Source: a virus (taxonomy: Duplodnaviria > Heunggongvirae > Uroviricota > Caudoviricetes). Taken from it: a stretch of DNA of 8,961 bases. The notes beneath the pieces were generated by a model. That model did not search any database, was not told the origin of the DNA, and saw only the letters and a program-made list of their open reading frames with translations. Below, piece by piece: positions 7,478 through 8,961 of the stretch. Positions within the stretch are counted from its first letter, which is position 1. The number at the start of each line of letters is the position of its first letter. The DNA lies in IMG/VR virus record IMGVR_UViG_2548876934_000005, one strand, 5' to 3'. The translations under genes and the position numbers were made by a program.

Positions 7478-7532
7478 CCTCGCACTCGCGGGGATTTCTT
7501 TTATCTGAACTCGCTACGGCGGGTTTTGTTTT
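7478..7532 (+). terminator. Tandem pair of hairpin + T-run elements: CTCGC-ACTC-GCGGG (7479-7492) + ATTTCTTTT, and CTCGC-TACG-GCGGG (7510-7523) + TTTTGTTTT
   Basis: Two near-identical 5-bp stems (one G-U pair each), each followed by a T-rich run, 31 nt apart, read directly. Likely tandem intrinsic terminators for the 7176 gene. Confidence 0.45.
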
Positions 7533-7545
7533 ATGGAGATGATAA

Positions 7546-7713
7546 ATGCACTTCCGAGTCACAGGAGAATGGAATGGAGAGCCATTCGACAGGGTTATCG
7601 AAGCAGAGGACATCAACGACTGCTATAACCACTGGATGATATGGGCGCAGATAGCGCATGCAGACGTAACCAATATTCGAATTGAAGAACTGAAAGAACA
7701 CCAAACCGCCTGA
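7546..7713 (+). CDS. Small hypothetical protein (55 aa), positionally equivalent to the short ORF preceding torI in K-12 KplE1
   Basis: Absent from the supplied ORF track, presumably because of its length. ATG at 7546 with GGAG 8 nt upstream; translation MHFRVTGEWNGEPFDRVIEAEDINDCYNHWMIWAQIAHADVTNIRIEELKEHQTA. The TGA stop lies in the loop of a strong terminator. My memory that this resembles K-12 ypdJ is unverified. Confidence 0.45.
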   Translation: MHFRVTGEWNGEPFDRVIEAEDINDCYNHWMIWAQIAHADVTNIRIEELKEHQTA

Positions 7714-7726
7714 TGGCGGTTTTTTA
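7704..7726 (+). terminator. Rho-independent terminator: stem AACCGCC / GGCGGTT, loop TGAT, T-run TTTTTT
   Basis: Perfect 7-bp stem with 4-nt loop followed by T-run, seen directly. The stop codon of the 7546 ORF sits in the loop. Confidence 0.75.
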
Positions 7727-7735
7727 TTACCTGAT

Positions 7736-7751
7736 TTGCAGGTTCGATTCC
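7736..7751 (+). repeat. tRNA-like fragment TTGCAGGTTCGATTCC, identical to the T-arm of argW (1054-1069), upstream of torI
   Basis: Exact 16-nt match to the argW T-stem/T-loop region but lacking the acceptor 3' end. About 300 bp upstream of the attR core. Confidence 0.4.
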
Positions 7752-7770
7752 CTATTCGGAGATAGCACTC

Positions 7771-7971
7771 ATGCAACACGAACTACAGCCTGATTCCCTG
7801 GTTGATTTGAAATTCATCATGGCTGATACTGGCTTTGGTAAAACCTTCATCTACGACCGGATTAAGTCCGGCGACCTGCCAAAAGCCAAAGTTATCCACG
7901 GACGAGCAAGATGGTTATATCGTGACCATTGTGAATTCAAAAATAAGCTCTTAAGCCGCGCCAATGGGTAA
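7771..7971 (+). CDS. torI: TorI-like excisionase / recombination directionality factor (winged-helix; Tor response-regulator inhibitor)
   Basis: 66-aa ORF, GGAG 9 nt upstream of the ATG. The translation MQHELQPDSLVDLKFIMADTGFGKTFIYDRIKSGDLPKAKVIHGRARWLYRDHCEFKNKLLSRANG matches my recollection of E. coli TorI. It lies just inside attR, as in K-12 KplE1. Confidence 0.85.
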   Translation: MQHELQPDSLVDLKFIMADTGFGKTFIYDRIKSGDLPKAKVIHGRARWLYRDHCEFKNKLLSRANG

Positions 7972-8044
7972 AATAGCGGGTAAAATATTCCTCACATCTA
8001 AAAAACACCATTCCAATCAATCCCCTGCCACCTCAAGTAGATGT

Positions 8045-8060
8045 CTGCAGGGGACACCAT
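8045..8060 (+). repeat. attR core: second copy of the 16-bp repeat CTGCAGGGGACACCAT
   Basis: Exact identity with 1069-1084. Flanking sequence is unrelated to the tRNA body, as expected for attR. Confidence 0.8.
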
Positions 8061-8183
8061 CCCGCCGTACACTAACGTCTACCATTGTCTATAAACCCCA
8101 TGTAACCATATAAAAATAAAGAGATTTTATTCTCATGACGTCCATTGCCGTCTATTGAAATCAAGTAAATCTATGGGGCATAA

Positions 8184-8222
8184 TTGGGGGCATTGCTGGT
8201 TCGATTGTAAATGTGCCCCCAA
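8184..8222 (+). repeat. 9-bp perfect inverted repeat TTGGGGGCA (8184-8192) / TGCCCCCAA (8214-8222) with 21-nt spacer, ending 1 nt before the 8224 integrase start codon
   Basis: Arms are exact reverse complements. An extra direct GGGGCAT copy lies at 8175-8181. The spacer contains a tRNA T-loop-like GGTTCGATT. Confidence 0.5.
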
Positions 8223-8223
8223 T

Positions 8224-8961
8224 ATGTCCAGAAATACCCTCAACAAATTAACAGACCGTCAGTGCAAAGCAGCTAAGCCACGAGACAAAACTTATAAATT
8301 GTCTGATGGTGGTGGTCTTTATCTTGAAGTATCCCAGACCGGGTCGAAGTATTGGCGAATGAAGTATCGCCGCCCATCAGATAAGAAAGAAGACAGACTT
8401 GCTTTTGGTGTATATCCAACCATTAGCTTACAAGACGCCAGAGAAAAACGAGACAACGCCAAAAAGTTGTTAGTCAAGGGGATAGATCCCAAAGCAGAGC
8501 AAAGAGCAGCAAAAGCAGAAGAAAAAGGTGCATTCACTTTTGAGACAATAGGACGTCAATGGGTTGAAAGCCACCAGATGTGGAACGAAGCCCACCGAAA
8601 ACGCGTACTTAGAAGCCTTGAAATGTATATTTTCCCTCACATTGGCACTTCGGATATTCGCAAACTGGAGGCGATGACAATTTTACCTTTGTTTAAGAAG
8701 GTAGATGACGCCGGGAAACACGATACAGCCAACCGACTTAAACAACGAGTTAAGGACATCATACATAGCGCCCGTCTGAGCGGCATTAAGACAGAAATCA
8801 TCACGAATGATCTCGATGTCCGGTTAATGCAATATGAAACTAAGCATCATGCCGCACTACATCCCAGAGATTTACCAGACTTTTTCACTCGATTGGGCAG
8901 CTTTAAAGGTAATCCTCTTACCCGCCTTGCCATTGAGCTAACCATGTTGACCTTTGGGTAA
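8224..8961 (+). CDS. Second P4-type tyrosine integrase, N-terminal (arm-binding/core-binding) region only; catalytic domain absent, likely truncated or pseudogene
   Basis: First strong in-frame ATG at 8224 (track ORF from a TTG at 8155; another ATG at 8173). N-terminus LSDGGGLYLEV...YWRMKYRRP parallels the 1245 integrase (LLDGNGLYLYV...WQLRYK). The ORF stops at TAA 8959-8961 after about 245 aa, where full-length homologues continue into the R-H-R-Y catalytic domain. Confidence 0.7.
   Translation: MSRNTLNKLTDRQCKAAKPRDKTYKLSDGGGLYLEVSQTGSKYWRMKYRRPSDKKEDRLAFGVYPTISLQDAREKRDNAKKLLVKGIDPKAEQRAAKAEEKGAFTFETIGRQWVESHQMWNEAHRKRVLRSLEMYIFPHIGTSDIRKLEAMTILPLFKKVDDAGKHDTANRLKQRVKDIIHSARLSGIKTEIITNDLDVRLMQYETKHHAALHPRDLPDFFTRLGSFKGNPLTRLAIELTMLTFG

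Follow-up and report, generated by a model that had tools for sequence, protein, structure and literature searches.

We find it highly probable that the window (the whole 8,961-bp stretch of DNA analysed here) reaches, at its right edge, into the left end of another integrative element (island 2), which lies head-to-tail behind a ~7-kb remnant of a KplE1/Sf6/HK620-type prophage (prophage 1) at argW, and that a deletion of ~2,486 bp has fused codon 244 of the island's integrase gene, int2, to DNA located just upstream of its Rep gene. Within the tRNA 3′ end, a single stretch would serve both elements for recombination, and this shared target would therefore produce the array argW/core, prophage 1 (intS to torI), core, island 2 (int2 to a serine recombinase), core, and dsdC.

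The first 933 bp of the window are yfdC, read from its ATG; argW, a tRNA-Arg(CCU) gene, follows at 1,009-1,083 (forward strand; found by ARAGORN and annotated as tRNA-Arg in NZ_CP148385.1), and mobile DNA begins behind it. The tRNA gene carries the attB of both elements, and its 3′ end forms the attL core of prophage 1, CTGCAGGGGACACCAT (1,069-1,084), which is letter-for-letter the core that is duplicated at the two ends of KplE1 (Panis et al., PMC2951348). The intact integrase gene intS is located at 1,245-2,402 (forward strand, 385 aa), with all three Pfam integrase domains and an intS annotation in NZ_CP148385.1. It is followed by two moron-like genes: an ORF of 335 aa (2,578-3,585) without a family match above threshold, and a membrane acyltransferase (3,983-5,140; Acyl_transf_3, Pfam E 4.5e-35) that, judging by its family only, plausibly acetylates O-antigen as the acetylases of Sf6-type phages do. 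An ORF at 5,170-6,396 (reverse strand) covers a stretch that is annotated as phage tailspike in relatives and overlaps the start of the Ead/Ea22 ORF (6,077-6,973), behind which come an ea8.5-like gene and a small ORF; homology to relatives bearing tailspike prophages stops near 6,153. The last gene of prophage 1 is torI (7,771-7,971, forward strand, 66 aa), which encodes an excisionase (RDF), is annotated as torI (WP_001163428.1) in identical genomes, and is homologous to hkaC of HK620 and gene 18 of Sf6. No morphogenesis, lysis, or immunity genes are present in the ~7 kb of prophage 1.

A complete sister genome, NZ_CP148385.1 (strain Z1323HEC0011), matches window positions 1-8,956 at 100% identity, save for one IS421 insertion. 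Because its annotation names both torI and intS, prophage 1 is identified as a decayed remnant, about 7 kb long, of a KplE1/CPS-53 (Sf6/HK620-type) prophage at argW. With intS, torI, and both cores intact, excision of prophage 1 may be possible, by analogy with KplE1 in K-12 (PMC2951348). The IS421 copy of the sister genome sits between the acyltransferase gene and the tailspike-region fragment; the window lacks it.

We also observed that 16 nt of the argW T-arm, TTGCAGGTTCGATTCC, recur exactly at 7,736-7,751, in addition to their place in the tRNA gene at 1,054-1,069. The copy precedes the torI ATG by 20 nt and the attR core by 293 bp; taken together, copy and core reconstitute the contiguous 31-nt 3′ end of argW, which looks as though torI had split it. 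The free phage HK620 has the same copy, at a spot annotated there as a cII-activated “phage integration” promoter. A 135-bp attR substrate is functional in vitro (PMC3509656), and the T-arm copy falls outside that substrate.

The right boundary of prophage 1 could be placed to the base. In the window there are exactly two copies of the 16-mer CTGCAGGGGACACCAT, at 1,069-1,084 and at 8,045-8,060, and none of 200 shuffled sequences contained two matches. Free phages (Sf6, HK620, Kapi1, and relatives) match window positions 7,660-8,060 at 96-98% DNA identity and the match ends exactly at 8,060, so we set the right end of prophage 1 there. From 8,061 onward, strain 600468 has the same sequence directly behind argW, differing by one substitution in the part inspected. 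The exact repeat at 8,045-8,060 is therefore a shared core, serving as attR of prophage 1 and attL of island 2. An earlier note on this DNA had given 7,972-8,961 as the coordinates of its observation; the second element begins at the core (or at 8,061), and positions 7,972-8,060 still belong to prophage 1.

DNA beyond the window was taken from the Logan assembly SRR21142925 (contig SRR21142925_9, hereafter L003), which may or may not derive from the same isolate as the window; the contig is identical to window positions 7,676-8,961, with no mismatch in 1,286 bases, and continues for another 10 kb. The next copy of the 16-bp repeat, for which the earlier note had suggested a search downstream, is found on this contig as a third exact core (8,595-8,610), 8,224 bp further downstream and immediately before dsdC; NZ_CP148385.1 likewise has three core copies. 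At this right end of island 2, 26 nt (TTCGATTCCTGCAGGGGACACCATCC) are identical to argW; strains 600468 and 7/2, which have csc genes in place of the dsd flank, show a right-end repeat of 23 nt. The sequence after the third core (CCTTGTGTTTATCCCTAAAACC) is the chromosomal flank that in K-12 directly follows the attR of KplE1, to judge from the attR primer of PMC3509656. Island 2 is thus flanked on both sides by direct repeats of the tRNA 3′ end, and it is present or absent as a unit at the same site (alone at argW in 600468; K-12 flank after the third core). With core repeats on both sides and the K-12 flank behind the third copy, island 2 is therefore an insertion of ~8.2 kb that separates the native flank from the prophage attR core and has a repeat of the tRNA 3′ end at each border.

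Two orders of arrival would produce this arrangement, and we give each an about even chance. Either the prophage came first and island 2 entered the 16-nt core at the prophage attR, or island 2 entered a naive argW and an IntS-type phage later used the regenerated tRNA, pushing the island outward; in sequence, both give the same three junctions. Arrival of the prophage first is favored by signs that core copies away from the tRNA can be used. Four genomes have the reverse junction (island right arm, core, IntS arm), and strain TUM9754 (NZ_CP128939.1) has three elements in a row at argW, beginning with a decayed IntS remnant that includes an O-antigen polymerase gene and IS1 and continuing with the right end of island 2, a core, and a seemingly complete IntS-type prophage, so that distal core copies seem to be usable as attachment sites. 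Arrival of the island first is favored by the length of its repeat, which spans 23-26 nt of the tRNA (TTCGATTCC plus the core): of the eight bases to the left of the core, the prophage attR retains only four, so that Int2 would find the better match in the intact tRNA. Against a simple reading of either order, homologous recombination between related prophages is a further means by which the array can be rearranged. Of the earlier proposal that a second island had used the regenerated tRNA 3′ end as its attB, the separate argW-targeting element is upheld, and the prophage-first history becomes one of two possible orders.

Island 2 is an independent element that targets argW, since in strain 600468 an intact copy sits directly at argW, alone, with no prophage between them and with the same distance from core to int2 start codon. 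It is very improbable that int2 instead belongs to the same prophage, as an additional integrase gene or as a rearranged piece of it: although IMG/VR predictions lump torI, core, and int2 into single “viral” regions of 40-47 kb, phages Sf6, HK620, and Kapi1 match only as far as the core end at 8,060, and the island has flanking repeats of its own, is found alone at argW, and contains no phage structural genes.

The intact form of island 2 is ~9.5 kb long and encodes, in order, a P4-type integrase, an ORF overlapping int, AlpA, a small ORF, a Xis-like HTH protein, another small ORF, a rolling-circle (HUH-type) Rep, a variable slot for anti-phage cargo, and a serine recombinase. In 600468, the overlapping ORF is 251 aa long, has no family match, and overlaps the end of int2 by 8 nt (L005 12,614-12,621). 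In L003, the genes behind the truncated int2 are Rep, GapS6b, GapS6a, a small ORF, and the serine recombinase, followed by the third core and dsdC. Rep (350 aa) has a weak match to REP_ORF2-G2P in the L003 copy and a clearer one in the homologue from the intact island (E 7.4e-07), and its PGAP product name is “rolling circle replication-associated protein”; the Resolvase match of the serine recombinase was likewise obtained on the homologue from the intact island. The cargo of L003 (3,220-6,846) is GapS6b plus GapS6a (NCBIfam, 1064 and 116.5 bits, above cut-off); PADLOC v2.0.0 gave no match to it, because that copy of PADLOC predates the system. The slot between Rep and the serine recombinase differs among strains: GapS6 here, SIR2-STAND in 600468, an HNH endonuclease in H1827/12, and two hypothetical proteins in 7/2.

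The int2 family is found in 238 of 5,426 complete E. coli genomes (~4%), always on the chromosome; 222 of the 238 match at least 80% of the query, which consisted of the upstream arm and the whole gene. The torI-core-int2 tandem is present in 32 genomes. Among 14 IMG/VR loci, seven have the island behind torI, six directly behind argW, and one with neither marker; all 14 are integrated, and no circular junction of an excised island was seen among them.

The integrase gene of island 2 in the window is truncated (8,224-8,961, forward strand; 245 codons followed by TAA at 8,959-8,961). Its ORF is listed as 8,155-8,961, and we set the start at the ATG at 8,224, which is the PGAP start in NZ_CP148385.1. 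This ATG lies 164 nt past the core end at 8,060, on the same strand as intS. The product contains an arm-binding domain (Arm-DNA-bind_3, PF13356; residues 9-96, E 3e-29) and a central SAM-like core-binding domain (Phage_int_M, PF22022; residues 106-196, E 4.1e-19), and Pfam found no catalytic Phage_integrase domain (PF00589) in its 245 residues; in an intact homologue PF00589 spans residues 233-392, and the window product ends at residue 245. Residues 1-244 are identical (244/244) to the N-terminus of an intact integrase of 428 aa from other E. coli, which occupies the same position in strain 7/2, for example. In the phage database, this intact Int2 is closest to satellite P4 Int (57.6% identical across 96% of the length; E 2e-149), and the window product shares 31% identity with IntS over 236 aa (E 2e-37). 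The earlier note, made from the letters of the window, had placed a second P4-type integrase N-terminus 164 bp past the attR core, in the orientation of intS, had it stop after the N-terminal domains, and had proposed alignment with full-length integrases; the ATG at 8,224, the 57.6% identity to P4 Int, the two domains found, and the 244 identical residues all bear it out. Since the catalytic domain is missing both from the ORF and from the coding sequence downstream, int2 of the window is, on its sequence, a pseudogene remnant of the P4-type (Arm-DNA-bind_3) integrase family rather than a functional member.

The 163 bp between core and start codon (8,061-8,223) are the left arm of island 2, and the same sequence separates argW from int2 in the solo island of 600468, with one substitution in the stretch inspected; the distance from core to ATG is 164 in 13 of the 14 IMG/VR loci checked. 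A sigma-70-like match (TTGAAA-18-CATAAT; 8,155-8,184, forward strand) is a candidate int2 promoter by consensus match only, and with one such match found against 1.9 expected in shuffles it is not significant alone. Three of the five occurrences of GGGGCA in the window fall within the 50 nt before the int2 ATG (8,175 and 8,187 on the forward strand and 8,214 on the reverse strand; 8,175-8,219), and a pair with the same 12-nt spacing occurs 66-78 nt before the right-end core (L003 8,517 and 8,529). Judged by motif counts, these are candidate arm-type sites of Int2, overlapped by the promoter-like match; such an overlap of arm sites and promoter would fit the layout of an autoregulated, tRNA-adjacent integrase gene, as described for intS (PMC2951348). 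Just before the int2 ATG we also observed a hairpin (8,184-8,221; TGGGGGCA-N19-TGCCCCCA), which holds a 13/16 copy of the argW T-arm repeat (8,193-8,208) and two of the three local GGGGCA motifs, and which could be read as paired arm sites for Int2 or as a degenerate relic of tRNA-like sequence.

The reason why int2 stops is seen at its last bases (8,955-8,961, forward strand). Intact copies read TTGACCTTTG followed by TTCGTTCAAGCGAG (encoding LTFVRSSE...), and the window reads TTGACCTTTG followed by GGTAA. Past the window end, L003 continues with AGTGCCTGAAGACACG, a sequence that in the intact island is located 133 bp upstream of Rep and is preceded by GCTGGTG. The junction in L003 is TTGACCTTTG joined to GGTAAAGTGCC; in the intact island the left side is TTGACCTTTG followed by TTCGTTC, and the right side is GCTGGTG followed by GGTAAAGTGCC. 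Thus TG at 8,955-8,956 is the microhomology, and GGTAA at 8,957-8,961 comes from the DNA 133 bp upstream of Rep and makes the stop codon. Compared with strain 600468, ~2,486 bp are missing, with the 2-nt TG microhomology at the joint: residues 245-428 of Int2 (essentially the whole PF00589 domain), the 251-aa ORF with its 8-nt overlap, AlpA (PF05930, E 3.6e-18), a 63-aa ORF, the HTH_17 Xis-like protein, and most of a 128-aa ORF.

The exact window junction is absent from all 5,426 complete E. coli genomes, where every match stops at 8,956, and the 229 genomes that have the int2 segment all depart from the window beyond that position; an exact-sequence look-up of the 245-aa product found the junction in one Logan contig, which encodes the same product. 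NZ_CP148385.1 has a nested int2 deletion of ~2,215 bp with a 3-nt TTA microhomology (L001 10,257-10,301, against L003 1,282-1,287). Two nested deletions in otherwise identical lineages suggest stepwise erosion of one spot; the window deletion could have arisen from the ~2,215-bp state by a further loss of ~271 bp, or independently.

Given this junction, it is hardly credible that the integrase gene is otherwise intact and that the TAA at 8,959-8,961 reflects a simple frameshift or a mistake in sequencing or assembly, an idea that arises only because the window ends at the stop codon. The sequence from 8,957 is island DNA that lies ~2.5 kb downstream in intact copies, not integrase in another frame; an independent assembly encodes the same 245-aa product and continues into the pre-Rep DNA; the sister genome has lost ~2,215 bp, in a nested deletion, at almost the same spot; and no coding for a catalytic domain follows. 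When the missing C-terminal half of Int2 was compared with L003 by tblastn, nothing better than E 0.38 was found in the downstream 10 kb, and in the window the only match was to the catalytic domain of IntS itself. A frameshift in int2 is ruled out by the deletion end points together with this negative search. The same results dispose of two suggestions in the earlier note, that the catalytic domain might continue in another frame and that the stop might be an error; of its two alternatives, that the neighbor may be immobile or its gene may be frameshifted, immobility holds, being very likely from the gene content, and the frameshift fails, the cause being the ~2.5-kb deletion. Least probable of all, and ruled out by the downstream sequence, is an IS1 insertion that truncates int2 with the window stopping inside the repeat: the last five bases, GGTAA, match the IS1 left end, and beyond 8,956 none of the 229 genomes with the int2 segment follows the window, but the continuation GGTAAAGTGCCTGAAGACACG is the stretch upstream of the island Rep gene, not IS1.

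Under the tandem-element explanation, intact island 2 would integrate at the argW 3′ end by means of Int2; AlpA and the Xis-like protein, possibly with the int-overlapping ORF, would control its excision, and Rep would replicate the excised circle. The deletion at the 2-nt microhomology joined int2 codon 244 to the DNA just upstream of Rep, creating the TAA. The remnant keeps both att copies, Rep, GapS6a/b, and the resolvase; it would no longer excise by itself, and would thereby have become a fixed defence island. In the lineage of the window, island 2 is very likely immobile by itself, because the active site of the recombinase and the excision regulators are gone and no integrase coding is found downstream; it may be rescued in trans by a related integrase.

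For annotation, these results place the right boundary of the argW prophage at 8,060 and turn the 245-aa “integrase” into a dead remnant. They also explain how a GapS6 anti-phage system came to be fixed beside dsdC in this lineage, and illustrate how defence cargo can be stranded: a small internal deletion takes the catalytic domain and the excision regulators, and the att sites and the cargo stay. The intact island family (238 of the 5,426 complete E. coli genomes, with SIR2-STAND, GapS6, or HNH cargo) may merit a description of its own. A more far-reaching reading, which we consider unlikely, is that island 2 represents an unnamed family of minimal, helper-dependent defence elements of E. 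coli, whose attachment core has converged on that of Sf6/HK620-type phages, whose co-residence with them is functional (as helper and satellite, or through co-excision), and whose copy in the window has recently been fossilised.

Compared with known systems, prophage 1 is a member of the KplE1 (CPS-53)/HK620/Sf6 module, having the same core, CTGCAGGGGACACCAT, in duplicate, intS at attL, and torI as the last gene before attR. The module does not include int2: Int2 is only 31% identical to IntS, and the int2 DNA begins where phage homology ends. Int2 resembles the integrase of satellite P4, with 57.6% identity and, when intact, the same three-domain layout, and in both elements int adjoins the tRNA-proximal att in the orientation of the tRNA; however, P4 targets leuX and island 2 targets argW, and the window copy lacks the catalytic domain. 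When all genes of the intact island were compared with Pfam and PHROGs, only int, AlpA, HTH_17, REP_ORF2-G2P, the cargo, and the resolvase were recognized, and the P4 hallmarks (primase-helicase alpha, sid, delta, and psu) were not found in any of them. Gene content thus rules out island 2 as a P4-like satellite, the only P4 functions matched being the integrase and AlpA. We also rejected EcCIMP1, a PICI mobilised by the argW phage Kapi1, which is located at a tRNA-Thr gene between proA and yagU and has a primase.

In architecture only, island 2 is similar to the PICMI minimal satellites of Vibrionaceae, which carry int, an int-overlapping gene (iolg) that is needed for excision, AlpA, and a primase (PMC10803314): it fits int, an ORF with an 8-nt overlap, AlpA, a single replication gene, and defence cargo into ~9.5 kb, and the 251-aa overlapping ORF is reminiscent of iolg in its layout. 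Unlike PICMI, which combine int, the overlapping gene, AlpA, and a primase next to fis and depend on a helper phage, island 2 has a Rep of rolling-circle type in place of the primase, is located at argW, and has no known helper phage.

The argW array is an instance of the tandem arrays at tRNA and tmRNA genes, which it resembles in its repeated tRNA 3′ ends between elements, its presence/absence polymorphism, and its defence cargo, and from which it differs in nothing essential. Tandem arrays at tRNA genes are well known, and it is common at such sites for unlike integrases to share one tRNA segment, as do the two here, with 31% identity and the same 16 nt. Tandem insertion followed by decay at a tRNA hotspot is ordinary, expected biology. 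The argW-dsdCXA region has itself been cited as hypervariable (PMC3032704); traffic at ssrA and tRNA hotspots has been described, and small integrase-bearing defence islands at tRNA hotspots, whose mobilisation is unclear, are a recognised category (PMC10121019).
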